DNA of 64,000 nucleotides, taken from the NCBI GenBank assembly GCA_900768875.1, contig CAAGEP010000006.1, positions 71,950 through 135,949 of the forward strand, given 5' to 3'. This stretch comes from Alphaproteobacteria bacterium (GTDB lineage: Bacteria; Pseudomonadota; Alphaproteobacteria; CAAGCB01; CAG-977). The notes beneath the pieces are model-generated. The model searched no databases. It was not told the DNA's origin and was given only the letters and a program-made list of their open reading frames with translations. Position numbers and translations under genes: made by a program. How positions within the stretch are numbered: position 1 is the first letter of the stretch; the number at the start of each line of letters is the position of its first letter. Shown here piece after piece: positions 15,401-59,008 of this stretch.

Positions 15401-15821
15401 CACTGCCGATGAAGTCTTTTTCATCCAATCGTTCGGGCTGTAAAGCGTAGCGGATGGGACCGAAAAACGCGGACAAAGTGCCGAACAAAACGGGCAGGAT
15501 AATCAACAGTCCCGCGTTGTTGGCAAAGAAAACCAACCCTGCGACAAGCATCAAAACCAGTTCGACCAGTTTGACGGAACGGGTCAGCTTGATGCGTCCG
15601 TATTTTTTCGCCAACAAAGTGGCGCGCGCCGAAAACAAAAAGAACGGCAACAGCAAAAGCCCCGCAATCAGGTTTGACGGATCGGGCGATTGTTGTGTGA
15701 TGCGCACGGCGATAATCGTCAGCAAAGCGATTTTGAACAGGCTGTTCGTCAGTCCGTCAAACAAAACGGCAAATAGGCTTTTTGCGGCTTTGACCAAGTT
15801 TTCTGTGGAATGGGAAGACAT
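12441..15821 (-). CDS. aas: LplT-Aas fusion: MFS lysophospholipid transporter + PlsC-type acyltransferase (HxxxxD) + acyl-ACP synthetase (AMP-binding)
   Basis: 1126 aa. N-terminal multi-TM MFS region. NHTSLLD acyltransferase motif. AMP-binding motif TSGSEGMPKAV. Confidence 0.75.
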   Translation of the reverse strand: MSSHSTENLVKAAKSLFAVLFDGLTNSLFKIALLTIIAVRITQQSPDPSNLIAGLLLLPFFLFSARATLLAKKYGRIKLTRSVKLVELVLMLVAGLVFFANNAGLLIILPVLFGTLSAFFGPIRYALQPERLDEKDFIGSDAYTSKSTYVSIVVAILFGVLLPVRLAALCLILLSLASYLATRAVAEEAPEPDLQKFDRNILKGIRSTLRTVRRYPLIYRSILGATWFWSLGLLVVLLIYPLITQVFNTDAVAAAFLLSLYAAGVGVGIAYCTRLLRGVVHTTYVPISTLGIAVCFLALSVLTLGYGTPAERVDFVEFITRFRPAVFCLFFFLLAFCCGMYITPLSNLIQKKATDANRAAVFAANNIINAAGIAVVALIVAVLRHFDLGISAIFLLFALASFVVSVYNCSVLPAALVRSIAQTILETLFRVTVKGLPNFQESGKRVLIVANHTSLLDGLLIAAFMPEKITFVIKPEWENRWFARFFSLMVDLYPLDLNNPLSLRSLIDLIKRNNKVMIFPEQRISVTGALMKVYEGAGIVAEKANANILPVRINGAQYSKFSLLKTKFKTQYFPKITINIMPHKKFDIDPALTGRLRNHEVSLQLYTMMSEMMYASSKINEHLFTGLLNAQKIHGKHHIIAEDISRKPLRYKTLILKSYVLGRTFDRLLPNEERLGILLPNVLANLVVFFALQSRDKVPAMLNFSSGIAQVLSCIKTVGLKTVVTSHKFIEGGKLEKLEAAIRDAGINLVYMEDFAQQVSGEDKFRGITDYLLSRKPKHAADQTAAILFTSGSEGMPKAVLLSHINFQANRYQALSILDLNSNDVFFNALPMFHAFGLGIGTLLTTLSGIKTFYYPSPLHYRIVPELVYATNATILCGTDTFFAGYGASAHPYDFFALRYAIVGAEKLKETTAELWSRKFGIRILEGYGATEAAPLIAVNTPMYIKAGTVGRLVPGLEARLEDVPGITEGKRLFVRGDNIMQGYMKADKPCVLQPPADGWHDTGDIVAVDKDGFVAIKGRAKRFAKIGGEMISLTAIEQELAKLYEGAVQGVVAIADVKKGEQLVLITTAENADAAQIRAYIKQVGLNDLGTPSKIIIVKEPPILGTGKFDYVSAQKMAEEKFGAE

Positions 15822-37594: not shown

Positions 37595-40500
37595 CTAGGC
37601 CTGAGCGTTGAAAACGCGCGACAAGGTCATATACAGACGGCCTGCTTCAGAACCCAGCAAAACAGCGGTCAGCACGTCGGAACGTTCGTTTTCCTGCGCG
37701 CGGGACAGCACACCTTCAAAAATGCCCATATATTTTGAAACATAATTGCGGAATTCGGAATCTTCGGTGTATTTTTCGCCGATTTTGCGGATTTGATTTT
37801 TGTCAATCGCGCGGGACAGATAGCGGATAAATGCACTTTTATCGCCGGAATAGTAGCGTTTCCACAAATCGTCTTCAACATTCGGGGCGAACAGGCGCGT
37901 CATATCGACACCCAGCGATTGCAGCTGTTCAATAATCAGCGACGCGTCTTTCATAAAGCGGTCGGTGTCGGCGTCTTCTTTGCGTTTGTTCAGCGCGGCG
38001 ATGTATTCCTCCGCCGATCGGGATGCCGAAATCAGCGATTGCACCTGACGATTGAACGCGCCGCCCAGTTTAAGGGACTGTGCCGAAATCTGTTCGCCCG
38101 ATTCGTGGATTTCCTTGGCGTTTTCCTTTAGAACGCTCAACAAATCCTGCAGGCGTTTCAACGCTTCGTCTGCGGCGGTTGACAGCGTGTCCGACTGTTC
38201 GACGAACTGTTCGCCCGATTTGCGGACTTCGGCGGCGATGCGTTCGGAATTACCGGCGACTTCGCTGATCATGGCGCGCAAACGCTGGCCTGCGACATCG
38301 ATTTGAACGACGCCCTTGTTGGACATGTCCTCGAATTCTTTACCGATCTGATTGACGACATCGCCGATGCTGCGGACGCGTTCTTCGGCCGTTTCGGCGG
38401 TTTTGTTAAAGTCCTCGGCCCGTTCGCGCAGGACAACGCCGCAGTTTTTGACGGCTTTTTGGGCTTCTTCCGACAATCGAGAAACCTGATGCGCCTGTAC
38501 CAAAAACGTATCGCCGGATTTTTCCAATTCTTCAAGCGCGATTTGAGAAGCGGCGCGCAGCCGTTCTTTTTTTGCGTCAAGCAAATCGCCCGCATCCGTC
38601 AGATCGCCGATGACTTGTTGAACCAGTTGCGACAAAAGTTCGGTTTTGTCCTCCAGCATTTCAGATGTGGATTGGGACAGCGACACGGATTTTGCGGCGG
38701 CTTTGGATGCTTCTTCGTTGCGCTGACGCAGGTTTTCGCCCATGGCTTCCAGCTCGAAACCGATGCGCGACGACGCGGTCAGCAAATCGGTCGTGTTTTT
38801 CCGAACGGCTTCGTTCGTATCGCGCAAATGAATCATCACGTCTTCCGCCGCGCCTTTCAAAGCGTCGGTTTGGCGGCTCAAAGACGCTTCACCCAGTCGA
38901 GACTGCGTGGCAATCATGTTGGCAACATCGCCTAAATCAATAATGTGCCTCTGCATGGAATCGCGAACCATCAAGACCTGCTGAGCCGATTGAGCGGATT
39001 GTTTTTGCAAATCGTCCGTTTGAGCGGCGATTTCGGCTTTCAGTCCGTTCATGCGGTCGTTCAAGGCGTCCGCGGTTGCGGAAAAACCGGATTGCACGCG
39101 GGCCAGCGTGTCGATGCCTGTTGTTTGATTGTCCGAAAAATCCTTCATTAAAGCCGAAATTTCCGTTATTTTTTCACCGAACAGGGCGGCGGCTTCGGTC
39201 AAGCGGGCTTTCGCCTGCGCGCCGATGTCCGTCAAGCTGTCCGTCTGCGCCGATAAAGCCGCGCCGACAACTTCCAAATGGGACACCGTCGTTTCCGATG
39301 CGCGGGTCAGTTCTTTTGTTTGGACGCTCAGTCCTTCCTCAATCAAGCGGATGCGGGATACCAAGCGTTCCAAATCGCTGTCCGCCTGTTCGGACTGTTC
39401 CCGCAGCAAAGTCGCCGCTTTGCCCATTTGTTCCGCCAGTTTATCGGAAGCATCGGACATCGTTTTGCTCTGTTTGGAAAACAGGGAATCGATTCGATCC
39501 GTCTTTTCCGACAAATCGCCGGCAACGGTTGTCGCTCTGTCCAGCAGAATTCCCGCATCCCCGTCCAGTTTGCGGAACTGTTCGTCCAGTTGGGAAACGG
39601 CTTTTTCGGTGCGGCTTTTCAGCAAATCGGCGGACACGTCCATCTGCGTCATCCGTCGGGTGATTTCTGCGGAAACTTCTTCCGTATAGCCTGTCATGCG
39701 GCGAATCGAATCGTCCAGCATGTCCTTGTGGGCGTCCAGTGTTTCCGCCAGCTGCGTGTTTGCGGCGGCCGTTTGTTTCGACGCATTGTCGAACGATTGG
39801 ATTTTGTTGCCCAAAGCAATTTCCAGTTCAGTGAATTTGTCGGCGGCGGCGGACGATTTCGCCACTATGTCGCGCAGCCGGTCGGACAGGCTTTCGATTG
39901 TTGCGGCACTGCGGTTTTCAAGCAGTTCCGCGATGTGAGCCAAATCTTCCGACTGCTGTTTCAATTCGCCCTTGATTTCTTCCACTCTGGCCGATGCGGC
40001 GGAAATGTATTTCTGCTGTTGAGCCAACGACGTTTCGGACACCAGTGCCTGCGACACCAGTGCGCTGCTTAAATCGGACAGCTCGGCGGAATGTTTCAGC
40101 AGGCGGGCGCAAGAGGAATCGGCGCGTTCGTTTGTTTGATCGACCGCCGTTTTCAAAAGGCGCACGCTTGCTTCAAAGCAAGAGTTTATCGATTCCAACC
40201 TGTCGTTCGCCGTATCCAAAGCGGCGTTCAGCCGCGCCGTTTGCGTATCCAGCGATTCCATGGCGGCTTGAGATTGGGCGTTCGTGTTTTTCAAAGCAAC
40301 CGTCAGCAGTTGCGTTTTCATGTCGATTTGTTCGCCGACATCCGTCAGGCGGCTGCTCGCTTTTTCCGCCGCCGCTTCAATCGATTCGGCTTTGCCGTTC
40401 ATTTCGTCCGATACCGCGGAAATGCCGCCGACGGCCGTTTGCGCCGCCGTGTTGATTTCGGCGATGTAAGTGTCCAATGTGGTCTGCAAGGTCTTGAAGC

Positions 40501-41737
40501 GCGCGACGATTTTTTCGGCTTCGCTGTCCAGACTGTTGTTTTGTTCCTTGAACGTGGCGGACAACTGCGCCGCCGTGGCGTGCAAAGCGTCGTTTTTGGC
40601 CGAAATTTCGCTTTGCTGGGCGGACAGCAATTCCGTCAAGGTCTGTTCGCGCCGTTCCAAATTGTCCGCCATCTGTTCCGCATTGGCGCGTGCCGATTTC
40701 GTCAGTTCATCCAGAATTTGAGCTTTTTCATCCAGCAAAACCGTCAACGCCGCCACGGAATCCTGCGTGCGCGTTCCCGCCTGCTCAAGGGCGGTCAGCT
40801 GATTTCGGATTTCCGTGCTGATTTCCGTTGTCTGATTTGCCAGCTTTTCGCGAATGTTGTCGGCGGCGGCGGTTAAAGAGGCGGCGTTTTTGGCGATTTC
40901 AAGCGCGGTGATGCCCGTTTGTTCCGTTAAAATGTCGCGGGCGTTTTCGGATGCGGTTTTCAGCAATCCGCTTTGTTCCCGCACATCCAAAGTCAATCGG
41001 GTCAGATTGTCGGTCAAAATGTCGTTCGTTTGCAATAAAGCGTCGCGCTGCGCGGTCAGCCGTTCCCTTGCGGCGCAAACGGTTTCGTCGGTTTCGCGGG
41101 CGGCGTTTTGCAAAGCTTGCGTGTTTTCCTGCAGCAAGGACAGGCTTTTTTCCGTCTGTTCGCCGGCTAAAGTGCAAAGCTGTTCAAGTTCGCGCGTTTT
41201 TTCGGCGACTCCGTTCGTTCCCCGCGACAAGGCGGCTTCCATGGCTTCGGTGGCTTTGAAAATGCCGGAGGTTTGCTCTTCAAAAGATTTTCCGATCGAA
41301 TCGGTACAGTTTTTCAATCGGGCGTAAACGGTGTTCAAATCCGATGTTTGCGCTTTCAAGCTGTCCAGCACACCCGATACATACAGGCGGTTTTTGGCTT
41401 CGGGATGCGTAAATTCCGCCATATAGCGGCGCAAAATGTCGGCCTCGCGGACATAGCGCCGTTCGGACGCAAAGTATGCCGCCGCAATCCAAATGAAGGC
41501 AACGGGACTCAGCAATCCCGTCAAGCAGCTGAAGTATTCGGGGGGCGTCATTTCGTAGCGCGCGCTCCACCACCCCGAAACGCCCAAAAACGACCATGCC
41601 GAAACGCCCCACAAAACCGTTAGCGCGATTGCCGCAATCACGGCGATTTTGTCTTTTGCCGATTTCGGGGAAAGGGTTTCCTGCGACAGCAGCAGCGTTT
41701 CGTTTGTTTCGTTTTCCGAAGCCATGGTCTTTTCCAT
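37595..41737 (-). CDS. 1380-aa membrane-anchored coiled-coil protein (2 N-terminal TM helices, ~1100-aa Q/A/L/E/T/S-rich coiled coil, ~170-aa C-terminal globular domain); TipN-like architecture, function unknown
   Basis: TM segments IAVIAAIALTVLWGVSAWSFLGV and LTGLLSPVAFIWIAAAYFA. Long heptad-like low-complexity region. No recognised enzymatic motif. Confidence 0.5.
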   Translation of the reverse strand: MEKTMASENETNETLLLSQETLSPKSAKDKIAVIAAIALTVLWGVSAWSFLGVSGWWSARYEMTPPEYFSCLTGLLSPVAFIWIAAAYFASERRYVREADILRRYMAEFTHPEAKNRLYVSGVLDSLKAQTSDLNTVYARLKNCTDSIGKSFEEQTSGIFKATEAMEAALSRGTNGVAEKTRELEQLCTLAGEQTEKSLSLLQENTQALQNAARETDETVCAARERLTAQRDALLQTNDILTDNLTRLTLDVREQSGLLKTASENARDILTEQTGITALEIAKNAASLTAAADNIREKLANQTTEISTEIRNQLTALEQAGTRTQDSVAALTVLLDEKAQILDELTKSARANAEQMADNLERREQTLTELLSAQQSEISAKNDALHATAAQLSATFKEQNNSLDSEAEKIVARFKTLQTTLDTYIAEINTAAQTAVGGISAVSDEMNGKAESIEAAAEKASSRLTDVGEQIDMKTQLLTVALKNTNAQSQAAMESLDTQTARLNAALDTANDRLESINSCFEASVRLLKTAVDQTNERADSSCARLLKHSAELSDLSSALVSQALVSETSLAQQQKYISAASARVEEIKGELKQQSEDLAHIAELLENRSAATIESLSDRLRDIVAKSSAAADKFTELEIALGNKIQSFDNASKQTAAANTQLAETLDAHKDMLDDSIRRMTGYTEEVSAEITRRMTQMDVSADLLKSRTEKAVSQLDEQFRKLDGDAGILLDRATTVAGDLSEKTDRIDSLFSKQSKTMSDASDKLAEQMGKAATLLREQSEQADSDLERLVSRIRLIEEGLSVQTKELTRASETTVSHLEVVGAALSAQTDSLTDIGAQAKARLTEAAALFGEKITEISALMKDFSDNQTTGIDTLARVQSGFSATADALNDRMNGLKAEIAAQTDDLQKQSAQSAQQVLMVRDSMQRHIIDLGDVANMIATQSRLGEASLSRQTDALKGAAEDVMIHLRDTNEAVRKNTTDLLTASSRIGFELEAMGENLRQRNEEASKAAAKSVSLSQSTSEMLEDKTELLSQLVQQVIGDLTDAGDLLDAKKERLRAASQIALEELEKSGDTFLVQAHQVSRLSEEAQKAVKNCGVVLRERAEDFNKTAETAEERVRSIGDVVNQIGKEFEDMSNKGVVQIDVAGQRLRAMISEVAGNSERIAAEVRKSGEQFVEQSDTLSTAADEALKRLQDLLSVLKENAKEIHESGEQISAQSLKLGGAFNRQVQSLISASRSAEEYIAALNKRKEDADTDRFMKDASLIIEQLQSLGVDMTRLFAPNVEDDLWKRYYSGDKSAFIRYLSRAIDKNQIRKIGEKYTEDSEFRNYVSKYMGIFEGVLSRAQENERSDVLTAVLLGSEAGRLYMTLSRVFNAQA

Positions 41738-46613: not shown

Positions 46614-48293
46614 TCAGCGTCCGCCGCCGCCCCCGCCGCCATGACCGCCGCCGGAAAAACCGCCGCCGCCACTGCCGCTTGAACGGGCGGGCGCGGTCGT
46701 CGATCTGCCGACAGCGGCGACAAATCCGTCATATCCGCAACAAGGAATGTGCCGGCAATACGCCGCCGTTGTTTCGGACGACATGGCTTTGATTTTGTCG
46801 CTCCATTCGCTTTCCATATCCAGCAAAACGGCGTACGGCATCAGCTTTTCCGTTTTTTCGGCGGAAACCTGTGCGGAAGATTTCAGAAACAGTTTGATTC
46901 CTTGAATATGGTCGGCAATATCGCGTCCTTTTTCCGTCAGGCGCTTTATCAACGCGCCGTAAATCGGAACAGTCGCCGCCGCCGCCGCGTAAAAGGCGGC
47001 AATCGCCGGAAAGCCGTTCGTTTTGGCGAACATCATCGTCGCGAAATGAAAGGAGATAAACACTGCCATAAACACAGTTGCAAAGCTGAATTTCCGGTTT
47101 TTGAATCCTTGCAGCACCATGGTTGAAGCCACAATGAAAAACGGCAGGTAAAATGCAAAATAAATCAGCAAATCCGTCATTTGTTCGTCATATGCGCCTT
47201 TAATCAGCAAAAAAGCGGCAAGCAGCGCACCGCCGACGGTGAAGATTTTGTTGGTTTTAAAGCAATCGCGCGTTTTTTCGCGCAAAAGCTTGTTCAGCGC
47301 GTTTTGGGCTTGTGTCGCGCGGGGATTGTAAAAACGGCCGACGTGTAAAGGGAACGTGAGAAACTTGTCCAAAATCCGTTCTTCGTCGTTTTTGGGGGCG
47401 CGGTTTTTCAGCAGCGTGTTCGGACTTTGCGGATCGAACGAACAGTATCCCGACACGGTTGCCTGCAGCAAAGCCAGAGCCAAGGTTTTATCTTTTTTCG
47501 CGCCCAAAGAAGCCGCGAAGTTCGCTTCGGCGGGGGTCATGCCCGTGATGCCGTCAAAGCGCGGCATAATCGAATCGGACGGCGGATTGCGCTTGACGGC
47601 AAGTCCCGTCAGCAAAAAATACAGTCCCAAAACGCCGATTGCCGCCCAAACGTTAAACGGATGCGGCGACGCGGAAACGCTGACCGCGCCTTTGTCAAAA
47701 CCGACGGCAACGGTCAATCCTTCGCCCGCTTGCAAAGGGCGGGGGGCGAAAAAGCGCAAATCGGAATAACGCGCCGATTCCGTCGAACCGTATCCGCCGA
47801 TATAGCCCGCTTGGCGAACGACGCGCGCGCCGCGGGGCAAAGTGACGGACGCGGACGCTTCGTCAATCGGAAACGCCCAGTTGTTGCCCGTGACGTTCCA
47901 ATAAACTTCGTCGTATTTGTCAAAAAAGCGAACTGCGTTTCGCACGCGGTAAACCAGAGTGAACGTTGTTGTTTCACGCGGAATGAAATCATCGTTTCCC
48001 GTATTGACGCGCAAATTGCCGCTGCTGTTTTCGATGAAAAAAGGTTCGGGATTGCCGTTGCGGAAAACGGATTCGATGTGATAGCGTTCCCCTTTGTTTC
48101 GGGGTAAATCGCGGTAAATGCCGCGGCGGATGTTGACGCCTTCAACGGTGACGGTAATGTTTTCCGTAACGAACAGGGACGCGTCGGGCTGAACGGTTAT
48201 ATCGGCGCGGTAGGACAAAATCCGTTCCGCAGCATGCGCCGAAAACGAAAATACAATCAGAAAAAGGGTTAAAAGCTTTTTCAACGGTGTCAA
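46614..48293 (-). CDS. DUF2207 (YciQ-like) membrane protein with C-terminal Gly-rich tail
   Basis: Signal peptide, ~230-aa extracytoplasmic N-domain, 3-4 TM helices, C-terminal [18 protein letters not shown]. Start overlaps the upstream stop (ATGA). Confidence 0.55.
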
Positions 48294-49075
48294 GTCACCA
48301 AATTCAAAATGCGCGCGGCGGTGCCGGCGGACGATGCGCGGTTGATTGTCGCCATGTTCGTATACCCCGCCGCCAACAAATCGGAAGCCCCTTGCGCGGA
48401 CAGAATACCGCTGTTCGTCGTGGCGTTCGTCAGCGACGAATTCATTTGCTCCTCGTTTTTTTTCTGCTGAATTTGCCCTTCGGACAGCCCTTTGTGATTG
48501 ACGGCGGTTTCCTTGGTGACATAGTCGTGCTTGTAAGTATCGCCCATTTGCACTTGCAGAGCGTACAGCGTGTCCTTTTTAACGGGCTTGCCGTCCTGCG
48601 TGGTGACGTGAATGTAATAAGTGCCTTTGCCCGCGTCGAATTCGCCTTTCATCATTTTTTCGAAAGCGGCGTATTCCTTGGATTTGGAATCGTCGTTTGT
48701 GGCAATCATTTTATCGCGGTAGCCCTGTTTGGTGTAGATTTCGACGCGCAGTCCCTTGGCTTTGAAATCCGCGGTGGCTTTTTCATAGTCGGACGCGGCG
48801 CTGTCAATGTCGTCCTGCGACACGTCTTTGTTTTTATCCTGCAAAGCGGATACGTTGATGGCGGACAGGCGCAGTTTTCCTTTGGACAGGGATTTGAAGC
48901 TGAACCAATCCTCGGTTTCGTTTTCGGACAACGTGGTAATCATATTCAGCCGCGAATAATTCAGGCGCAAATTGCCCATGTCGCGCGCGGTTTTAATCGT
49001 GTCGTTGTAAACGTCGGACGACGATTTCGACCATGACTTTGCCAAAGTCGCGGTTAATTCTACACCGTTAGCCAT
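48290..49075 (-). CDS. hypothetical 261-aa soluble protein, translationally coupled to DUF2207 gene
   Basis: No signal peptide, TM segment or recognisable motif. Lys/Asp-rich. It is not LemA-like, although LemA is the usual DUF2207 partner. Confidence 0.4.
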
Positions 49076-49124: not shown

Positions 49125-51053
49125 TTACAATTCGGGCAAGACTTCGTCGAAATTCTTTTCAACGGGTGGCAGGGGTTCCGGCTTTTGTTTTTTTTCGGGC
49201 TTGTTTCGGGGGGATTGCCATTCGACTTCGTACAAACGCTGGCGTTCGTCAATGCCTTTCAAGTCAAACAGCCCCAAGTCTTTGAAAACATAGCTTTTTC
49301 CCGCTGCCAATTCTTTGACGACGCTGGAAACGAAAATCTGGTTTTTATCGGCTTTGGCGCAAATTCTGGCGGCGATTTGAACCGTCAGTCCGAACAAATC
49401 GTTGTTTTCGACAATCGGTTCGCCCGAATTCAGTCCGATTCGGATTTCCAAAGGAACGGTCGGCGATTCGTGGTTGTATTCATTGACGGCGCGTTGAATC
49501 GCGATTGCCGCGTCCAGCGCGTTCGACGCCCATACGAACGATGCCATGATACCGTCGCCCGTTTGTTTTATTTCTTCACCGTTGCAGGCGGTCAAAGCCT
49601 GCCGCACGATGGTGTTGTGCCGGTGAACCAGTTCCTGCGCCAACGTGTCGCCGTAGGTCTGCGTCATTTGCGTTGATCCGACGATGTCCGTAAACATTAC
49701 CGATATCGTTCCCGATTGAGTCAATTCTTTTTTATCGGGGTTCAGCCATTTTTGCAAAGCTCCCTGCAACAGAGAGGGCAATTCGGGCGAAGACGGCGTT
49801 TCGGTGTAAAGCTCCATTGCTTTTGATCCGTTTTCAATCATCGGCAAATAGGACGGTTCCAACATATATTCGTCCAAACGATCAAAAAACAAATCGGCCA
49901 AAGACTTCGTCCGTCCCATTAGCTCCAACTGAGAAGACAGCAACAAACGTTCTTCGTTTTTTTGCAAAGCGTTTTTGGTGCACAAAAATTCACACGCTCC
50001 CGCCAAAAAAAGTTCAACCCCGAAACGGGCGTAAGTATTCAGCAGGACATTTTGTTTCTGCAGCGTTTTCAGAATCAGCGACAAAAACGCCGTCAGCTGC
50101 AGGTTGTAGCGTTCCAGTTCCGGCGGAATGGAGGAATCGTTTTCGGTGTCAGCTTTCGCTTCTTCCGCTGCCATCGGGTCGTCGGGGACTAAAAGGGCAT
50201 CCGGCTCTTTTTGTTCGTCTTCCGTCTGTTCGTTGTCTTCCGTGTTTTCCGTCGAATCGCTCTGAATCGATGCCAAAGCTTCTTCGGCGGCTTTTTCGTC
50301 TTCCTCTTTTTTCAAAGCGGCCGCTTTCTCGCGTTCGGCGATGCGTTCGGCCAATGTTTTGCGGCCGGTGATGCGGTCGAAAATATCGAACAGAAAACGG
50401 GCGACGCCGGTGGACAGTTCGTCTGCGCCTTCAAAAGATTCGGTGAATGTTTCAACGGGTTTTGCGTTTTTTTCACCGGCGACGGGGTCGTTTTTCGGCA
50501 GCTGCGGCCAGAACGGGTCTTTTTCGTCGTCCACGCCCATCAAAATGTTCCAGTCCACCCAGCGAACCGCCAGCGGAATGGATAAAAACAGGAAGAAAAA
50601 GATAAACAGTCCCAAAGCAAAATGCTGCGACATTTCCGTCGGAGCGAAATTCCCCATGACCATGGCGCGCAGGATGCCCGCCGACAAAGCCCCCGCTCCC
50701 AACAGGGAAATAATCAAAGCGAACCCCAAACGCAGGAAAGCTTCGGTAAACGTCTGTTCCGTTTTGCGTTTTTTTTCGTTTTTGTATTTCGGCAACGGAG
50801 GCGCGGGTTTTCCGATCATCTTGTCGCGCGGGGGCGGTTTCGGCAAATCGCTGAGGTAAACCATGGCTTCGGTGAACGTTTGGGCGTTCATGTCATAGGT
50901 TTCTTTGACAACTTTTGTAGGAGTTTGCTGAGAAAATTCAATGGATTTGGCGTGCTCCATCGCGGCGGAGCGGCGTTCGGACGGATAGCGGCCGATTAAA
51001 TCCCAGCTGCCGTTTTGATAGGCGTACACTTCATAATTGACTATACCTGGCAA
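49125..51053 (-). CDS. membrane-anchored class III adenylate/guanylate cyclase
   Basis: Two TM helices, acidic linker, C-terminal CHD domain (VMFTDIVGSTQ...GDGIMASF...). Confidence 0.75.
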   Translation of the reverse strand: MPGIVNYEVYAYQNGSWDLIGRYPSERRSAAMEHAKSIEFSQQTPTKVVKETYDMNAQTFTEAMVYLSDLPKPPPRDKMIGKPAPPLPKYKNEKKRKTEQTFTEAFLRLGFALIISLLGAGALSAGILRAMVMGNFAPTEMSQHFALGLFIFFFLFLSIPLAVRWVDWNILMGVDDEKDPFWPQLPKNDPVAGEKNAKPVETFTESFEGADELSTGVARFLFDIFDRITGRKTLAERIAEREKAAALKKEEDEKAAEEALASIQSDSTENTEDNEQTEDEQKEPDALLVPDDPMAAEEAKADTENDSSIPPELERYNLQLTAFLSLILKTLQKQNVLLNTYARFGVELFLAGACEFLCTKNALQKNEERLLLSSQLELMGRTKSLADLFFDRLDEYMLEPSYLPMIENGSKAMELYTETPSSPELPSLLQGALQKWLNPDKKELTQSGTISVMFTDIVGSTQMTQTYGDTLAQELVHRHNTIVRQALTACNGEEIKQTGDGIMASFVWASNALDAAIAIQRAVNEYNHESPTVPLEIRIGLNSGEPIVENNDLFGLTVQIAARICAKADKNQIFVSSVVKELAAGKSYVFKDLGLFDLKGIDERQRLYEVEWQSPRNKPEKKQKPEPLPPVEKNFDEVLPEL

Positions 51054-51100: not shown

Positions 51101-51146
51101 AGAAAAAAAGGCAATAAAAAAACAACGGCTTGAAAGCAAACCGTTG
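51101..51146 (-). terminator. rho-independent terminator downstream of rpmE
   Basis: Hairpin CAACGGTTTGCTTTCAAGCCGTTG followed by a T-rich run on the minus strand. Confidence 0.5.
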
Positions 51147-51163
51147 TTTCAAAAGAAAATCTT

Positions 51164-51478: not shown

Positions 51479-52501
51479 CTATCTTTCCGTTAATTTAAAC
51501 TCGATACGGCGGTTTTTTCTGCGCGCGGCGGGGGTATCGCCTTTTGCAATCGGTTGGTGCGATCCGAATCCGGCGGCGACCAAGCGGTTGGCGGAAACGC
51601 CTTTTTTTATCAGATAGCGCACAACGGCAATCGCTCTGTCCGACGACAAATGCCAGTTCGACGCGTACAGTTCGTTTGAAATCGGAACGTTGTCCGTATG
51701 TCCGTCAACCCGCAACACCCAAGGCACCTTTGCGGGGATTTTTTTTGACAGTTCCTTGATGGAAGCCGCTATCAAATCCAGCTGTTTTTTGCCGCGTTCC
51801 TCCAAATGGGCGGAACCGCTTTTGAAAAACAGCTCGGATTGCAAAACAAAGCGGTCGCCGACGATTCGGATGTCGTCGCGGTTTTCCAACACTTTGCGCA
51901 AAGTGCCGAAAAAATCGGAGCGGTAATAAGACAGTTCGGACGCTTTTTGCGCCAAAGCTTTGTTCAAGCGTTTGCCCAAATCGGCGATTTGAGCGTTTTG
52001 GGTTTTGGCTTTTTCCTCTGCCGCGCCCAATGCCGCGTTCAGTTTCGCGATTTCGTCCGTCAGATTTTGCGTTTTCGTGTTGAGCAGCGCAATGTGCGCT
52101 TTTGCTTCGTCGGAAATTTTGCGTTCGTTTTCAAAGTCCTGTTTGCGGGCGGCGGTTTCTTTTTCCAATTCTTTTTTGCGCAGTTCCAACGCTTCGACGT
52201 CTTGCGTCAAAAGGGCTATTTTGGCTAAGGAATCTTTGTAATCCGACTGCGCCGCCGACAGTTGCCGTCCCAAATCGGCCGAGTTTTTGCGTTCGTTCGA
52301 CAATTCATCGGACAACACATCCAACTGATTGTTCAGCAATTCGATTTCGGAATTTTTCGTATCCAGATTGCGTCCCAAAAAATAATGCGACACTACAAAC
52401 AGCAACAGAAAAAACAAAACGACAATCAGCAGATTCGACATCACATCGACAAAGCTGGGCCAGAAGTTGTAAACGGCGTGCTTGCGAATTCGTCCCGCCA
52501 T
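51479..52501 (-). CDS. MotB/OmpA-family protein with N-terminal TM (conserved Asp), ~200-aa coiled-coil linker and C-terminal OmpA peptidoglycan-binding domain
   Basis: TM FVDVMSNLLIVVLFFLLLFVV. Long heptad region. OmpA_C-like domain (VDGHTDNVPI...SNWHLSSDRAIAVVRYL...RRIEF). 1-nt overlap (TAATG) with the upstream MotA-like gene. Confidence 0.65.
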   Translation of the reverse strand: MAGRIRKHAVYNFWPSFVDVMSNLLIVVLFFLLLFVVSHYFLGRNLDTKNSEIELLNNQLDVLSDELSNERKNSADLGRQLSAAQSDYKDSLAKIALLTQDVEALELRKKELEKETAARKQDFENERKISDEAKAHIALLNTKTQNLTDEIAKLNAALGAAEEKAKTQNAQIADLGKRLNKALAQKASELSYYRSDFFGTLRKVLENRDDIRIVGDRFVLQSELFFKSGSAHLEERGKKQLDLIAASIKELSKKIPAKVPWVLRVDGHTDNVPISNELYASNWHLSSDRAIAVVRYLIKKGVSANRLVAAGFGSHQPIAKGDTPAARRKNRRIEFKLTER

Positions 52502-53499
52502 TACTTGCCGTCCGTTCCCGAAATGGTGCGAATCAACAGACGAAACGAATCCCGCACTTCACGCAACAGGATTTCCTGGCGGGCTTCCGAATTTTTGTCA
52601 ATCTGACTTATGCTGCGATCGATTCGGCTGATGTAACGCAACAAATCCGTATCGTTCTGGGCGCGTTCCTGCGCTTTTGCGTCGTCGATTTGCAACTGGC
52701 GGCGGATGTCCGCCATGCTTTCCACCATTTGTTCCAGCAAAGCGTTGGTATAAGCCGCATTGGAAGTTACAGAATCGTCCGTTGACCCGACCCCCGACGC
52801 ATAGCGTGTCAGCGCCGCCAGATGTTCGTCCAATCCGTTGTAAAAATGGTTTTGCGCGCCGTTCGCCTGCAAGTCCAAAAATCCCATGACCAAAGCCCCC
52901 GCCAATCCCAACAGGGACGACGAGAACGCCGTTCCCATACCCGACAGCGGTGCTTCCAGACTGGTTTTAATCGTATTGAATGCGTCCGAAGCCGATTCGC
53001 CCGATACGTTCAGCGCCCGAATTACGTCGCCGACAGCGCCGACGGTACTCATCAATCCCCAAAACGTTCCAAGCAATCCCAAAAAAGTGGACAGCCCGAT
53101 TAAATAACGGGAAATGTCGCGGACTTCCTCCAACCGCATGCCGACGGAATCCAATACGGATCGCGCAATCGTCGGAGAAATGACGGCGTTTCCTTTGGCG
53201 CGGTTGTTTTTCAAAATCAACGCCAAAGGCGACAACAGCCGCAGCGGAGCCAACGCCGCGTCGTCCAAAGGCAAAGGCTGTTTGTTTATCCAGCGCACTT
53301 CTTTGCGCAAAACAAAAACGGAGCGGAAGTTCAAAATGATGCCCGCCGCCAAAACAAAAGCAATCAATCCGTTTAAAACGGGATTGGTGAAAAACGCCGA
53401 TTTTAAGAACGGAAACAGCAAAACGCCCGCAATGCAGACCAAAGCCAGAAACAATACCATTCGCGCAATGTAGCGTCCGGGAAATTCCATGGGAAACAC
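52501..53499 (-). CDS. MotA/TolQ/ExbB-family proton-channel protein with ~100-aa C-terminal cytoplasmic coiled-coil tail
   Basis: Four predicted TM helices. TolQ/ExbB-like signature LGLLGTFWGLMSTVGAV. AGGAG RBS. Confidence 0.65.
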   Translation of the reverse strand: MFPMEFPGRYIARMVLFLALVCIAGVLLFPFLKSAFFTNPVLNGLIAFVLAAGIILNFRSVFVLRKEVRWINKQPLPLDDAALAPLRLLSPLALILKNNRAKGNAVISPTIARSVLDSVGMRLEEVRDISRYLIGLSTFLGLLGTFWGLMSTVGAVGDVIRALNVSGESASDAFNTIKTSLEAPLSGMGTAFSSSLLGLAGALVMGFLDLQANGAQNHFYNGLDEHLAALTRYASGVGSTDDSVTSNAAYTNALLEQMVESMADIRRQLQIDDAKAQERAQNDTDLLRYISRIDRSISQIDKNSEARQEILLREVRDSFRLLIRTISGTDGK

Positions 53500-53516
53500 T
53501 CCTCTTGTGAGCTGTT

Positions 53517-54572
53517 TTATCCGTCAATTAAAATATCGGTGCGATCGGGCAGTTTGCTCCCTGCACCTTTGGTGGCGTGCGACCTGATTTCAATGCGCAA
53601 ACTGCTGACGCCCGCGCGCGCCAACGCCGAACGAACCGCCAAAGCGCGGCGCAGGGATGTTTGGCGCTCTCTGCCGATGTTGGGCGATGACGGGCGGCTG
53701 TACGACAATATCAAAATACGGCGAGATCTTTCTTTTTTGAAAAGTTTTGCCAGTTTTTCGGCTTCGGATTGCATTTCTTCCGTCAGCTCTGCGGAGTTTT
53801 CGGGAAATACAAAGATTGCCGTCAAATCTTTGTTGCGCAAAACCGCTTTTGCCGTCGCCGAATCGGCGGGAACTTCTTTGACCAAAAACGCAGAGCGTTC
53901 TTTCGGGGTCAGTTTCCGAATGACGGGAACAACCGACCATTTTGCGGCTTCGTCCGTTTTTAAAGCCTTTGCCGTCTTGCGGGTCAGCAGCATTTCGGGA
54001 ACGGTGTTCGGTTCCGCCGTTTGCGCCCGCTTCATCAAATCCAGTTCTTTGGCGGCGTGTTCCGCGTTTTCCTGTTGTTCCAGAAAATGTTTGGACAGCA
54101 TCGGTTCTGCGGGGGCTGTTTCGGCTTCGGCCTGCAGGACGGGCGGTTGCTCTGTGACGGGCAAAGGCGCGACGGGCAAAACTTTGACTGTCGGAACGGG
54201 ATCCGCGCGGGGCTTCAGCCTGTCGTGTGCATCCCCTGTTCCGTTTTCCTTGACCTCGTATTTCTTTACGGGTTTGACAGGGGGCTTGACAACGGGTTTG
54301 ACGGGTTTTTTAGGCTTTTTTGCTTTGACCGTCTTTTTGCTTTTGGCGTTTTTTTTGCGAACGGTCTTTGCCTTTTCTTTTTTCGGAGCCGACGCGCTTT
54401 GTTCCGCAGGCGGGTTCAGCGCGACGTTCGACTGGGCTTTCCGTTCCTTTGCCGAAGCCGTCAAATCGTCCGTCAGCACGTCCAAATCCAATGTGATTTG
54501 AGCAAAAGCCGCCGTCGCCGTTACATAAGCAACGGCAAAAGCGGCGGCGAATTTTGCAAATCGGACGGAAAT
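53517..54572 (-). CDS. secreted Lys/Pro-rich (TonB/TolA-like linker) protein with degenerate C-terminal OmpA-like domain; probable non-canonical ATT start at 54572 (conservative TTG-initiated ORF 53517..54491)
   Basis: Extending the frame upstream gives MSVRFAKFAAAFAVAYVTATAAFA|QITLDLD, a clean signal peptide. A perfect AAGGAG SD lies 7 nt before an ATT codon, and no ATG/GTG/TTG is available. The C-terminus reads SLRRALAVRSALARAGVSSLRIEIRS...DRTDILI, an OmpA_C-like region lacking the HTD motif. Confidence 0.45.
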   Translation of the reverse strand: MSVRFAKFAAAFAVAYVTATAAFAQITLDLDVLTDDLTASAKERKAQSNVALNPPAEQSASAPKKEKAKTVRKKNAKSKKTVKAKKPKKPVKPVVKPPVKPVKKYEVKENGTGDAHDRLKPRADPVPTVKVLPVAPLPVTEQPPVLQAEAETAPAEPMLSKHFLEQQENAEHAAKELDLMKRAQTAEPNTVPEMLLTRKTAKALKTDEAAKWSVVPVIRKLTPKERSAFLVKEVPADSATAKAVLRNKDLTAIFVFPENSAELTEEMQSEAEKLAKLFKKERSRRILILSYSRPSSPNIGRERQTSLRRALAVRSALARAGVSSLRIEIRSHATKGAGSKLPDRTDILIDG

Positions 54573-54583
54573 GACGGTTCTCC

Positions 54584-55675
54584 TTACTTGACGATAAGGT
54601 TTTTAAAGACTTCGTACTGCAACGAGTTTGACGCCAGAATCGTTCCGTCGGTCAAAACCGTTTTCGGTGTTTCGACGCCCGAAGTCGTGCAGACGCGTCC
54701 GCCCGCTTCGCGCACCATCAGCATGCCGGCGGCGATGTCCCACGGTTTGATGTCTTCTTCCCAGTAACATTCAAAGCGTCCTGCGGCGACATAAGCCAAA
54801 TCCAACGACGCGGCGCCCATGCGGCGAACACCGCCCGTTTTGGTCATCATCGGCATCAGCTGCGCCGTAAAGCGTTCCGCGTTGCCGTGCCCCAAATGGG
54901 GAATGCCCGTTACAACGACGGATTCGTTTAAAGCGGAGCGCGTGGAAACGTGCAGGCGGCTGGAACCCGAAGCGGTCAGCATCCATGCGCCGTTGCCCTT
55001 TTCGGCGTAGAACAAGTCGGACGTTGCGGGATTGTAAATCACGCCCGCGATGATTTCCTGATCTTCCTGCAAAGCCAAAGAAATCGCAAAATGCGGAACG
55101 GCATGCAAAAAGTTCATCGTGCCGTCCAACGGATCGATAATCCAACGGTGGGATGTGTCGTCGCCTTTGATTTCGCCGCCTTCTTCCTGTAAAAATCCGT
55201 AGCGGGGGCGGACTTTCAGCAGATATTCGCGCAACGTCTTTTCAGAGTTGGTGTCGGCGGTGGAAACAAAATCAGCTGCGCCTTTTTGCGACAGGCGCAG
55301 GTTTTCCAATTCACCGAAATCGCGCATCAAGCCGCGTCCGGCGCGCTTGACCGCCTGAATCATGACGTTCAGGTTCGCCGACAGCGACGAAATGAATTTG
55401 TCCTGACGGGATTCGCGAAAGTCAACCACGGGATCGCGCTTCATAAAAGTCGTTCTTTCATGACGATCGTCAAATCCTTCGTGTCCGGCGCGCGCTTCAC
55501 GCATCTCTTCCTGTTTTTGCTGCAGGGCGGCAATGGCGCGGTTTTTGATGTTTTCTTTGACCAACCGTTCCTGTTCCTGCGCTTTGCGTTCGGAAACGCG
55601 TTCGGCGGCAATGGCTTTGCGTGCGCTTGAGCGGCGCATCATCGGACTGGACGGTCTGATTGTAGTTTTAGGCAT
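54584..55675 (-). CDS. suhB: inositol monophosphatase family protein (SuhB-like) with ~95-aa basic N-terminal extension
   Basis: IMPase motifs (WIIDPLDGT, DxxxG...WD). The long ORF has a good SD (AAGGAAAGAGG). An alternative start at 55444 would give a canonical-length SuhB. Confidence 0.7.
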   Translation of the reverse strand: MPKTTIRPSSPMMRRSSARKAIAAERVSERKAQEQERLVKENIKNRAIAALQQKQEEMREARAGHEGFDDRHERTTFMKRDPVVDFRESRQDKFISSLSANLNVMIQAVKRAGRGLMRDFGELENLRLSQKGAADFVSTADTNSEKTLREYLLKVRPRYGFLQEEGGEIKGDDTSHRWIIDPLDGTMNFLHAVPHFAISLALQEDQEIIAGVIYNPATSDLFYAEKGNGAWMLTASGSSRLHVSTRSALNESVVVTGIPHLGHGNAERFTAQLMPMMTKTGGVRRMGAASLDLAYVAAGRFECYWEEDIKPWDIAAGMLMVREAGGRVCTTSGVETPKTVLTDGTILASNSLQYEVFKNLIVK

Positions 55676-58372: not shown

Positions 58373-59008
58373 GTGAGCTTGAACGAACGGCTGCAAACGG
58401 CTTTGGAAAATTTGGCGCAAGCGGCGCGGAAACTGGAAGCGGCGGGGGAAAAACTGGCGCGGGAACGTGCCGAATCCGCCGCCATGCGGGCTAAAAACGG
58501 CGAATTGTTCGCACAGGTCGAAATGCTGACCGCACAGCTGGAGCAGGCGCGGGAAAACGAATCGGAAAACGGCGAGCTGAAAGAGCAAATCGGCGAACTG
58601 ACGGCGACCCGCAACCGCTTGATTGCCGAAAAGAATCAGCTGTTGGGCGAACGTGAGCAGTTCAAAAAATTCCGCGAAGGTTGGGCGGCGGAACGTCCCG
58701 CTTTGATTAAAGCCAAAGACGACGCCGAAAACGAATTGCGCCGTTTGGAACAAAGCGCGGGCGAATCGACGGACAACGGCGAACTGACCGCCGCCAAAGC
58801 TCAAATCGAATCGCTGAAAAAACTGGTTGCCGAGCTGGAAAACGACAAAAACGCGCTGGCGGCGGAAAAAGAGCGAATCGCCGTCGAACGCGACGGTATT
58901 CAGACGGCTTTCGCCGAAATCAAGGAAACGACGCGGCAGGCCGCCGAACGGCTGGATTCGACGCTGGAGGAACTGCGTATTTTAAAGGGGGATTCATCCG
59001 ATGGCTGA
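58373..59008 (+). CDS. coiled-coil protein upstream of zapA (ZauP/ZapB-like)
   Basis: 211 aa, entirely heptad-rich. Overlaps the zapA start, in the same position as the Caulobacter ZapA partner ZauP. Confidence 0.45.
   Translation: MSLNERLQTALENLAQAARKLEAAGEKLARERAESAAMRAKNGELFAQVEMLTAQLEQARENESENGELKEQIGELTATRNRLIAEKNQLLGEREQFKKFREGWAAERPALIKAKDDAENELRRLEQSAGESTDNGELTAAKAQIESLKKLVAELENDKNALAAEKERIAVERDGIQTAFAEIKETTRQAAERLDSTLEELRILKGDSSDG

Follow-up and report, generated by a model that had tools for sequence, protein, structure and literature searches.

A candidate non-flagellar, peptidoglycan-anchored motor module with a ZorA-like cytoplasmic tail in the core genome of Alphaproteobacteria

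The window analysed here, a stretch of 64,000 nucleotides (nt) from an uncultured gut alphaproteobacterium (GenBank assembly GCA_900768875.1, contig CAAGEP010000006.1, positions 71,950 to 135,949), carries on its minus strand a locus of three genes, which we call g1, g2 and g3. We consider it probable that g2 and g3 encode the A and B subunits of a non-flagellar, peptidoglycan-anchored, ion-driven motor of the 5:2 type, with a ZorA-like cytoplasmic tail as its output, the secreted g1 protein as an accessory and a role in the cell envelope. In the narrower claim, that the pair belongs to the 5:2 motor class, is anchored to peptidoglycan and is not flagellar, we are considerably more confident; in the direction of output, much less so. 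On the same interpretation, the g2–g3 family would be a distinct, vertically inherited housekeeping system in many Alphaproteobacteria, whose role most likely lies in envelope, division or pole organisation and not in swimming or phage defence.

Ion-driven 5:2 motors power flagella, Ton uptake, Tol–Pal division, gliding with type 9 secretion, and Zorya defence. The locus would represent a further branch of this class, which much of the Alphaproteobacteria has inherited vertically, which Pfam for the most part fails to recognise and which is usually annotated, wrongly, as a flagellar stator. Three unusual traits are combined in it, namely a ZorA-like tail without an effector, a MotB-like anchor on a heptad-stepped stalk and a secreted, degenerate OmpA-like partner. 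The copy in the window is an ordinary member, and it is the family, rather than this instance, that is of interest. A first-pass annotation, made by a model from the letters of the window, had described the locus as a stator-like operon of unknown function; the three minus-strand open reading frames (ORFs) and all the motifs that it quoted in g1, g2 and g3 are present, although the system itself proved to be already known to databases and the literature, through the family PRK09039.1-2, through ‘MotA’ names and through genes studied in Komagataeibacter hansenii.

Results

The g2–g3 pair and its genomic context

In a set of 80 related genome loci, a g3 homolog was found in 76, and in each of these 76 it stood next to g2, with a gap of at most 30 nt or an overlap in 65. 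Because this adjacency recurs in every locus with g3, the arrangement is not due to chance. Co-occurrence of the whole trio, which the first-pass annotation had put forward as a check, extends to g1 in about half of the set: a g1-family hidden Markov model (HMM) matched directly upstream of g2 in 43 of the 80 loci and matched nothing else in those loci.

The surroundings of the pair are conserved as well, with suhB upstream in 44 loci, efp upstream in 38 and rpmE downstream in 30, and the order efp–suhB–(g1)–g2–g3…rpmE recurs in Rhodospirillales-like, Acetobacteraceae, Azospirillum, Kordiimonas and other loci. Since this synteny is shared by many alphaproteobacterial lineages, g2–g3 is an old, vertically inherited core-genome module and not an island, and it does not have the patchy distribution of Zorya-type systems. 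A defence role, one of the options raised at first pass, is unlikely in view of this conserved core-genome context; the ion-driven, stator-like envelope machine proposed alongside it probably stands. The alphaproteobacterial loci span Rhodospirillales-like bacteria, Azospirillum, Acetobacteraceae, Kordiimonas, Kiloniella, Defluviicoccus, Bradyrhizobium and other Rhizobiales, and a few further loci belong to Gammaproteobacteria (Dokdonella, Chiayiivirga) and Betaproteobacteria (Azoarcus, Denitromonas).

The pair occurs without g1 and efp–suhB in the Dokdonella and Chiayiivirga loci (L004, L008, L010, L012, L020, L031) and in those of Denitromonas and Azoarcus (L047, L055). The ORFs upstream of these copies resemble, on a look at their sequences, a TonB-dependent receptor and an HrpB-like helicase, both as candidates. 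Because the beta- and gammaproteobacterial copies stand among unrelated genes and outside the g1 and efp–suhB context, they suggest occasional horizontal transfer of the two-gene core.

When neighbouring genes in the 80 loci were clustered, no further conserved partner appeared downstream of g3, the recurrent neighbours being only an opposite-strand ABC transporter, rpmE, the cyclase gene described below and unrelated genes. No flagellar, tolB/pal or Zorya effector genes were found in the scanned part of the window or in the 80 related loci, so that the adjacency of tolB/pal or flagellar genes across relatives, which the first-pass annotation had named as the outcome that would speak against it, was not observed. 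Likewise, no cpoB or TonB-dependent partner genes are conserved near the module.

The g2 family is large, with more than 7,800 homologs in 90% clusters. In a search of 1.84 billion representatives at 50% identity, 935 fell below an E-value of 1e-30 and only 3,787 below 1e-3, so that the family stays distinct from MotA, ExbB and TolQ at large. Public names of g2 relatives are commonly ‘flagellar motor protein MotA’; the family is thus catalogued in databases and widely mis-annotated as flagellar. Literature searches on PRK09039, non-defence ZorAB homologs, alphaproteobacterial stator-like systems and MotAB-like genes in non-flagellated bacteria returned only Komagataeibacter papers, and no description of the family’s architecture, phyletic pattern or mechanism was found in the literature searched. 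A 2025 MotAB phylogeny groups non-flagellar homologs as ‘GIT’, and the present architecture is not described in the part of that paper at hand (PMC12505986).

The A subunit

The g2 protein, which contains LGLLGTFWGLMSTVGAV, has four transmembrane (TM) helices at residues ~11–29, 42–60, 127–150 and 187–209. The distribution of positive charge places its N-terminus inside, with a cytoplasmic loop at residues 61–126 (~65 aa) and a cytoplasmic tail at residues 210–329. Fold comparison of the structure model matched TolQ, ExbB, ZorA and MotA and displayed the paired long pore helices, reaching into the cytoplasm, by which the superfamily is recognised. The first-pass assignment of a 4-TM MotA/TolQ/ExbB-type protein accordingly holds at the level of fold, while the domain searches suggested with it gave a divided result: the OmpA model recognised both g1 and g3, but g2 reached only 22.6 bits against Pfam PF01618 (MotA_ExbB; cutoff 22.9). 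Many g2 relatives carry a precomputed PF01618 annotation, and others score 16–19 bits.

Conservation is concentrated in the pore-lining helices. TM3 and TM4 score 0.85 and 0.88, respectively, versus 0.46–0.76 in the other segments, making the pore region the most conserved part of the protein in the family. TM3 reads FLGLLGTFWGL, with Thr142 and Thr149 invariant, and TM4 contains GMGTAFSSSLLGLAG (family pattern GMGTAFSSSL.GL), with a Thr/Ser run at residues 187 and 190–192.

Models built for individual members of the superfamily were not matched. In NCBIfam, g2 scored 13.9 bits with MotA TIGR03818 (cutoff 303.8), 12.7 with TolQ TIGR02796 (cutoff 221), 12.8 with NF008066 (cutoff 403) and 22.7 with ZorA NF033917 (cutoff 500). 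The PADLOC profiles ZorA1/ZorA3, in comparison, were matched by 54 of the 54 g2 family members tested, over TM3, TM4 and the proximal tail (best E 1e-16); for the window g2 the match (E 1e-12) is partial, covering residues 126–320 only. At the level of sequence profiles, the g2 family is nearest to ZorA. A PDB sequence search with the g2 family profile retrieved no stator chain at E-values up to 1 and gave coiled-coil noise from the tail. Judged by these membership tests, the locus lies outside Mot, Tol, Ton and Zorya and within the broad A/B motor superfamily; the first-pass annotation had likewise set it apart from the Tol–Pal, Ton, Mot and Zorya architectures, and no matching neighbour genes accompany it.

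After TM4 the protein continues for about 120 aa, somewhat more than the ~100 aa first estimated. This tail consists of an extension of TM4, a Gly/Ser-rich linker (residues 231–242) with a low predicted local distance difference test (pLDDT) score, and a long helix (residues 243–328). Two motifs in it are conserved, AY..ALLEQ and, at the tip, R..[FI][KR]LL.RT[IV]. Tail length in the 80 loci ranges from 101 to 224 aa, and in some relatives of 557–614 aa (P0327, P0330, P0360, P0365, P0417) the tail is 200–250 aa above the usual length, with repeated helical segments. These long relatives were checked for domain fusions and showed only more helical tail and no catalytic domain; an apparent MFS fusion in one g2 relative was probably a gene-call artefact. 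Because some members have tails 200–250 aa longer, the g2 tail appears to be as plastic in length as the stalk of g3.

The B subunit and its stalk

The g3 protein begins with a basic cytoplasmic N-terminus and a TM helix that carries the motif FVDVMSNLL; in the alignment of g3 homologs (A4), W14, P15, V18 and D19 are invariant. Over residues 3–340 it matches NCBIfam NF006543 (PRK09039.1-2, ‘peptidoglycan-binding protein’) with 386.8 bits, above the cutoff of 305, and it matches PADLOC ZorB3 with an E-value of 2e-24. The C-terminal OmpA domain (E 2e-21) has the canonical motifs GHTD, SNWxLSxxRA and NRRIE throughout A4, the PDB entries closest to it in sequence are periplasmic domains of flagellar MotB and PomB (E 6e-19 to ~1e-17), and the protein ends in IEFKLTER. 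Both the TM aspartate and the OmpA domain had been recognised at first pass.

Between the two lies a proline-free coiled-coil stalk of ~170 aa, shorter than the ~200 aa proposed initially. Scored in 28-residue windows, its heptad pattern spans residues 38–115 and 127–213. Both ends of the stalk, next to the membrane and next to the OmpA domain, are conserved, and insertions and deletions fall in its middle (A4). As a measure of stalk length we used the distance in residues from the TM Asp to GHTD, which in 62 g3 homologs is 246–467, with one at 717, and which is 250 in the window g3. In 43 of the 62 this distance equals 250 modulo 7; as relatedness inflates that count, distinct lengths were counted separately, and 16 of 33 fell in the same modulo-7 class (binomial p = 3e-6). 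Stalk length therefore changes mostly in whole heptads, as expected of a continuous, phase-preserving coiled coil. Coiled coils rise by ~0.148 nm per residue, which would make the stalk ~25 nm long in the window g3 and roughly 24–57 nm across the family.

The secreted accessory protein

In the alignment of g1 homologs (A3), the h-region of the g1 signal peptide is short and its AxA cleavage site conserved, with cleavage between AFA and Q, and the mature N-terminus, QITLDLDVLTDD, is conserved. The first-pass description of g1 as a periplasmic protein with a K/P-rich linker, quoted there as KPKKPVKPVVKPPVKP, and a degenerate OmpA-like C-terminus is borne out, whereas the TolA/TonB-like anchoring implied by it is not, given the cleavable signal peptide. 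Residues 43–155 are disordered and K/P-rich in the AlphaFold2 (AF2) model, and the protein carries the short conserved motifs HDRLKPRA(D/N)PVP and SKHFLEQ.

The C-terminal domain scores 37.7 bits with the Pfam OmpA model (cutoff 27.2; E 2.7e-9), is modelled with pLDDT >90 and matches, in Foldseek, the domains of Pal, OprF, OmpA and MotB (E 2.5e-7). Across A3, g1 has SYSRP where canonical binders have GHTD, and the Arg of LRRA is kept. From the structures of Acinetobacter baumannii OmpA and of Pal, we take the GHTD Asp and the LSxxRA Arg to be the pair that binds diaminopimelate (DAP). Because the Asp is replaced, canonical DAP binding by g1 appears doubtful. The idea that g1 arose by recent duplication of the OmpA domain of g3 was considered and rejected (BLASTP E 0.016 over 34 residues).

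Genes resembling g1 stand upstream of the pair in Acetobacteraceae-type loci (L021, L033, L049, L056, L059). In Bradyrhizobium, Kordiimonas, Defluviicoccus and the beta- and gammaproteobacterial loci g1 is missing beside the pair, and it is therefore not essential to the core machine.

Related genes studied in Komagataeibacter hansenii

Genes named ‘motA’ (348 aa) and ‘motB’ (321 aa) have been overexpressed and disrupted in K. hansenii by Jacek et al. (2018, 2019; PMC6315621, PMC6570709), an organism reported to be without flagellar or pilus genes (PMC6570709, PMC6315621). On translating the published cloning primers, we obtained VTRPTTY at the start of MotA and …EFRLTDR followed by a stop at the end of MotB. 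These ends match Acetobacteraceae members of the g2 type (MTRPTSYLIRM) and of the g3 type (NRRIEFRLTDR, then stop), the MotB end fits the family-wide g3 C-terminus IE[FLM][KR]LT[DEQ]R, and a quantitative PCR primer encodes TLYQAF, corresponding to the L..AF motif that follows TM1. Because the primer translations match the family termini and the sizes of 348 and 321 aa fit, we assign the K. hansenii genes to the g2–g3 family. A homolog search from an Acetobacteraceae g2 for named Komagataeibacter proteins gave, among the 120 matches listed, only Acidiphilium/Acidocella-like sequences.

In K. hansenii, overexpression led to elongated or chained cells, ~three-fold wider colony spreading and looser cellulose, fusions to green fluorescent protein formed polar or bipolar foci, and disruptants of motA, motB and motAB were viable and made denser cellulose (PMC6570709, PMC6315621, PMC7347698). 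These data argue for a non-essential role tied to cell division, cell separation or the poles.

Gene starts, transcription and flanking sequence

Coordinates of the locus and its immediate flanks are collected in Table 1. The three genes are tightly packed head to tail, between suhB upstream and rpmE downstream as first described, with 11 nt from the suhB stop to g1 and 90 nt from g3 to rpmE.

Table 1 Features of the locus in the window
Feature	Positions	Strand	Basis
g1, secreted accessory protein, 351 aa	53517..54572	−	ORF, homolog alignment A3, AF2 model, g1-family HMM
g1 C-terminal OmpA-like domain, residues 210–351	53520..53945	−	Pfam, AF2, Foldseek
Shine-Dalgarno AAGGAG and ATT initiation codon of g1	54570..54583	−	kept in relatives L082, L081
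g2, A subunit, 329 aa, 4 TM	52501..53490	−	ORF, homologs, fold matches, PADLOC ZorA1/ZorA3
g2 pore-lining TM3 and TM4 with periplasmic loop between	52864..53112	−	segment conservation, invariant columns
g2 cytoplasmic tail	52504..52863	−	conservation, structure model, family lengths
g3, B subunit, 340 aa, MotB/ZorB-like	51479..52501	−	NF006543 match; TAATG overlap with g2
g3 TM helix, basic cytoplasmic N-terminus before it	52376..52456	−	A4; PADLOC ZorB1 match over residues 6–75
g3 periplasmic coiled-coil stalk, residues ~45–213	51863..52369	−	heptad windows, stalk lengths, A4
g3 OmpA/MotB-type peptidoglycan-binding domain	51482..51859	−	Pfam OmpA 2.3e-21; A4
suhB, inositol monophosphatase family	54584..55675	−	Pfam Inositol_P 3.9e-59
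rpmE, ribosomal protein L31	51164..51388	−	downstream of module in 30/80 loci
Intrinsic-terminator-like hairpin, 14-bp stem and T run, just past rpmE	51119..51150	−	

The coupling proposed at first pass holds for g2 and g3, whose stop and start share one nucleotide (TAATG); the 17-nt gap given there for g1 and g2 results only with a g2 start at GTG 53499. All close g2 homologs are 329 aa long and start at the equivalent of ATG 53490, which is preceded by GAGGAG and leaves a gap of 26 nt.

The g1 start at position 54572 was correctly placed, although the codon there is ATT rather than ATG, GTG or TTG. It lies 6 nt behind AAGGAG, and the arrangement AAGGAGAA-N5-ATT is common to the relatives L082 (about 1408–1423) and L081 (about 1393–1408), which have 83% and 61% protein identity and different spacer bases. 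The encoded signal peptide (…TATAAFA, followed by QITLDLDVLTDD) aligns with homologs that start at ATG (A3). Because this signal peptide is conserved and both ATT and the Shine-Dalgarno sequence are kept in the two relatives, we assign the g1 start to the non-canonical ATT (AUU) codon at 54572. More distant g1 homologs have an ATG start, and gene callers shorten g1 to 320–326 aa, with loss of the signal peptide. The ATT start may set a low g1 dosage or make translation sensitive to IF3.

Downstream of the trio on the minus strand, no other terminator-like site has as long a stem as the hairpin just past rpmE. The 11 nt from suhB to g1 contain no such site, and one within g1 on the minus strand is no stronger than sites in shuffled sequence. 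From the short gaps and the position of the longest-stemmed hairpin only after rpmE, the trio is probably co-transcribed with suhB (perhaps also efp) upstream and rpmE downstream. The GC content of the trio (0.47–0.54) is like that of its flanks, and with the synteny conserved a foreign origin of the trio in this genome was rejected.

The suhB ORF (363 aa) has a charged, K/E/R-rich N-terminal extension of ~95–100 aa before Inositol_P (residues 102–351), and calls in relatives are 361 aa (L081) and 286 aa (L082), leaving the true suhB start uncertain. Beyond rpmE, in the place where the first-pass annotation had put a membrane adenylate cyclase, lies the gene for a membrane protein of 642 aa that ends in a class III nucleotidyl cyclase domain (49125–51053, minus strand); the rpmE–cyclase order repeats in 8 of the 80 loci, so that in some lineages the cyclase gene belongs to the conserved surroundings. 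A 261-aa ORF (48290–49075, minus strand) without a Pfam match adjoins the cyclase gene here and in the relative L001.

Elsewhere in the window, a 2307-aa protein (3070–9993, plus strand) has a C-terminal TrbI/VirB10 domain after many beta-flower, RHS-like and DUF3659 repeats and adjoins a CagX/VirB9-like gene (1601–3124, plus strand); it resembles a type IV secretion component, though an unusually decorated one. A protein of 1126 aa (12441–15821, minus strand) joins an MFS transporter to an acyltransferase and an AMP-binding enzyme and looks like an LplT–Aas-type fusion for lysophospholipid recycling. A 1380-aa ORF (37595–41737, minus strand) has no Pfam match at E ≤ 1e-5, and a 211-aa coiled-coil protein (58373–59008, plus strand) shows a weak DUF4164 match under the Pfam cutoff.

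Discussion

Gene structure, coupling, domain identities, folds, conservation, synteny and the heptad-quantised stalk length come directly from the data presented above; the 5:2 stoichiometry, the passage of ions, rotation, bundling of the tails, the docking of g1 and the role in the cell are proposed by analogy, the solved MotAB, ExbBD, TolQR and ZorAB complexes providing the basis of a mechanism by homology (PMC11890865). In such a mechanism, a g2 ring, expected to be a pentamer, would surround two g3 TM helices, each with Asp19, and the ring of Thr and Ser from TM3 and TM4 would face Asp19 where ions pass. The invariant Asp19, together with the fact that conservation in g2 peaks in TM3 and TM4, is the pattern that a working ion pathway would be expected to show. 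Driven by the ion flow, the g2 ring would rotate against the g3 dimer, itself held by its OmpA/MotB domain on the peptidoglycan through a rigid, parallel coiled-coil stalk of ~25 nm. The C-terminal g2 helices (243–328) would hang in the cytoplasm as a short ZorA-like tail, whose conserved tip is the candidate output to a cytoplasmic partner. The g1 protein would be a low-abundance periplasmic accessory that docks via its N-terminal strand, its short motifs and its OmpA-like domain without the DAP-binding Asp, in a role that may be compared with that of MotY beside PomAB.

Several observations weigh against this model. The PF01618 score of g2 falls just short of the cutoff, the PDB search with the family profile found no stator chain, and neighbour clustering brought up no conserved cytoplasmic partner gene beside the module. 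The flexible Gly/Ser linker between the g2 core and the tail helix is unlike the rigid ZorA tail, and g1 is missing beside the pair in the lineages listed above. The stalk is at least as long as the typical distance from the inner membrane to the peptidoglycan; it must therefore tilt, run along the wall or pass through it, and a simple upright geometry may be wrong. Most of what was seen in K. hansenii followed the overexpression of membrane proteins and may be an indirect effect, and for all members of the family assembly, ion flow and rotation are proposals by homology.

Among the alternatives, a Tol/Ton-like periplasmic force transducer, with g1 as a TolA/TonB-like arm or the g3 stalk pulling and the g2 tail only structural, is unlikely but deserves the most weight. 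The g2 fold is as near TolQ/ExbB as it is to ZorA, and GLLGTFWGLM in TM3 is presumably comparable to GLFGTVWGIM of TolQ/ExbB. The long, disordered Lys/Pro-rich spacer of g1 could serve as an arm and its conserved N-terminal strand could dock by beta-augmentation, and the unseparated or elongated cells on overexpression in K. hansenii resemble those reported for tolQ and tolR. Nevertheless, the short h-region and AxA site mean that g1 lacks the anchor that keeps TolA and TonB beside the motor, g1 is missing in many lineages that keep g2–g3, g3 has a MotB-type OmpA domain and not a TolR/ExbD fold, the TolQ and MotA equivalog models fail on g2, and the conserved tip of the g2 tail points to a cytoplasmic contact. 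We regard as improbable, somewhat more so than the force transducer, a static tether or spacer between inner membrane and peptidoglycan, in which motor activity was lost and the coiled coil sets or senses periplasmic geometry. The long, heptad-quantised stalk with its canonical peptidoglycan-binding domain, a stalk length that varies ~two-fold among species, unlike in a precisely fitted motor, and the fact that no output partner was found would all suit a tether; the invariant Asp19 and the well-conserved, Thr/Ser-rich TM3 and TM4 fit an ion pathway and not a passive anchor, for which, moreover, an A subunit would be superfluous.

That the locus is a minimal Zorya-like anti-phage sensor, with effectors encoded elsewhere, is very improbable, even though no profiles match g2 better than the ZorA models in all members tested, g3 matches ZorB3 well and g2 has a C-terminal helical tail. 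The NCBIfam ZorA score is far below its cutoff, no gene like ZorC, ZorD, ZorE, ZorF or ZorG and no other conserved neighbour was found at the loci, and the core-genome position between efp–suhB and rpmE across orders is unlike that of defence islands. In addition, the window g2 tail of ~120 aa compares with PADLOC ZorA profiles of 420–1063 positions, and the g3 stalk has no counterpart in ZorB profiles of 215–293 positions. Least credible of all is the reading behind public names such as ‘flagellar motor protein MotA’, in which the pair is the organism’s flagellar stator (MotAB): the g3 periplasmic domain is indeed most like MotB/PomB and the 4-TM topology of g2 is MotA-like, yet g2 scores far below the TIGR03818 cutoff and its cytoplasmic loop has only ~65 aa, less than the FliG-contacting domain of MotA. 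No flagellar gene occurs in the scanned part of the window or in the 80 loci, the family is kept in K. hansenii, and the family profile, retrieving so few of the 1.84 billion representatives, does not merge with MotA.

Setting out from the ion-driven, peptidoglycan-anchored motor that we favour, one may speculate further that the locus is a housekeeping counterpart, possibly the evolutionary source, of the ZorAB of Zorya, acting as a constitutive sensor and motor of envelope geometry; taken as a whole, we hold this claim to be unlikely. The heptad-phased g3 stalk would then report where the peptidoglycan lies with respect to the inner membrane, or whether it is intact, and engagement of the stalk would gate ion flow. 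The rotating g2 ring and its tail tip would relay the state to a cytoplasmic target that controls division, separation or pole identity. The family may in that case show the origin of the Zorya sensor module. More generally, once the output is worked out, the family could give the motor class a new job, and a widespread annotation error would be corrected; its function could also explain the effects on cell shape and cellulose network that are used in Komagataeibacter engineering.

Comparison with known systems

The closest parallels are with ZorAB (8QYD, 8VVN; PMC11890865). ZorA and g2 share an ExbB/TolQ-like fold with a C-terminal cytoplasmic helical tail, and ZorB and g3 each combine an N-terminal TM Asp, facing a Ser/Thr ring, with a C-terminal peptidoglycan-binding domain. 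In contrast to ZorAB, g2–g3 comes without effector genes, resides in the core genome and has an extra secreted OmpA-like protein, g1. Its tails (~120 aa in g2 and 101–224 aa in the 80 loci) are well below the lengths of the PADLOC ZorA profiles and are preceded by a flexible linker, and the coiled-coil stalk of the g3 family (170–390 aa) finds no room in the ZorB profiles.

With MotAB/PomAB the pair shares a 4-TM A subunit and a B subunit with a TM Asp and a MotB/PomB-type OmpA domain. It differs in that g2 fails the MotA model and has a small cytoplasmic loop, there is no flagellar context, the family occurs in an aflagellate genus, and g3 has a rigid coiled coil where MotB has a plug and a flexible linker. 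MotY, a secreted periplasmic protein with a C-terminal OmpA-like domain, acts next to a stator, and g1 resembles it. From TolQRA–Pal and ExbBD–TonB the locus is set apart by the OmpA domain of g3, as opposed to a TolR/ExbD fold, by the cleavable signal peptide of g1, as opposed to the membrane anchor of TolA and TonB, by neighbourhoods without tolB, pal, cpoB or TonB-dependent partner genes and by scores of ~13 bits with the TolQ models.

Within databases, g3 belongs to the NCBIfam family PRK09039 (NF006542–NF006546), of which it passes NF006543; this family is a naming model, with no function or partner attached. The K. hansenii MotA and MotB are of the same family, in an Acetobacteraceae species as compared with the uncultured gut alphaproteobacterium here, and the papers on them, which do not analyse the architecture, treat the genes as motility genes.

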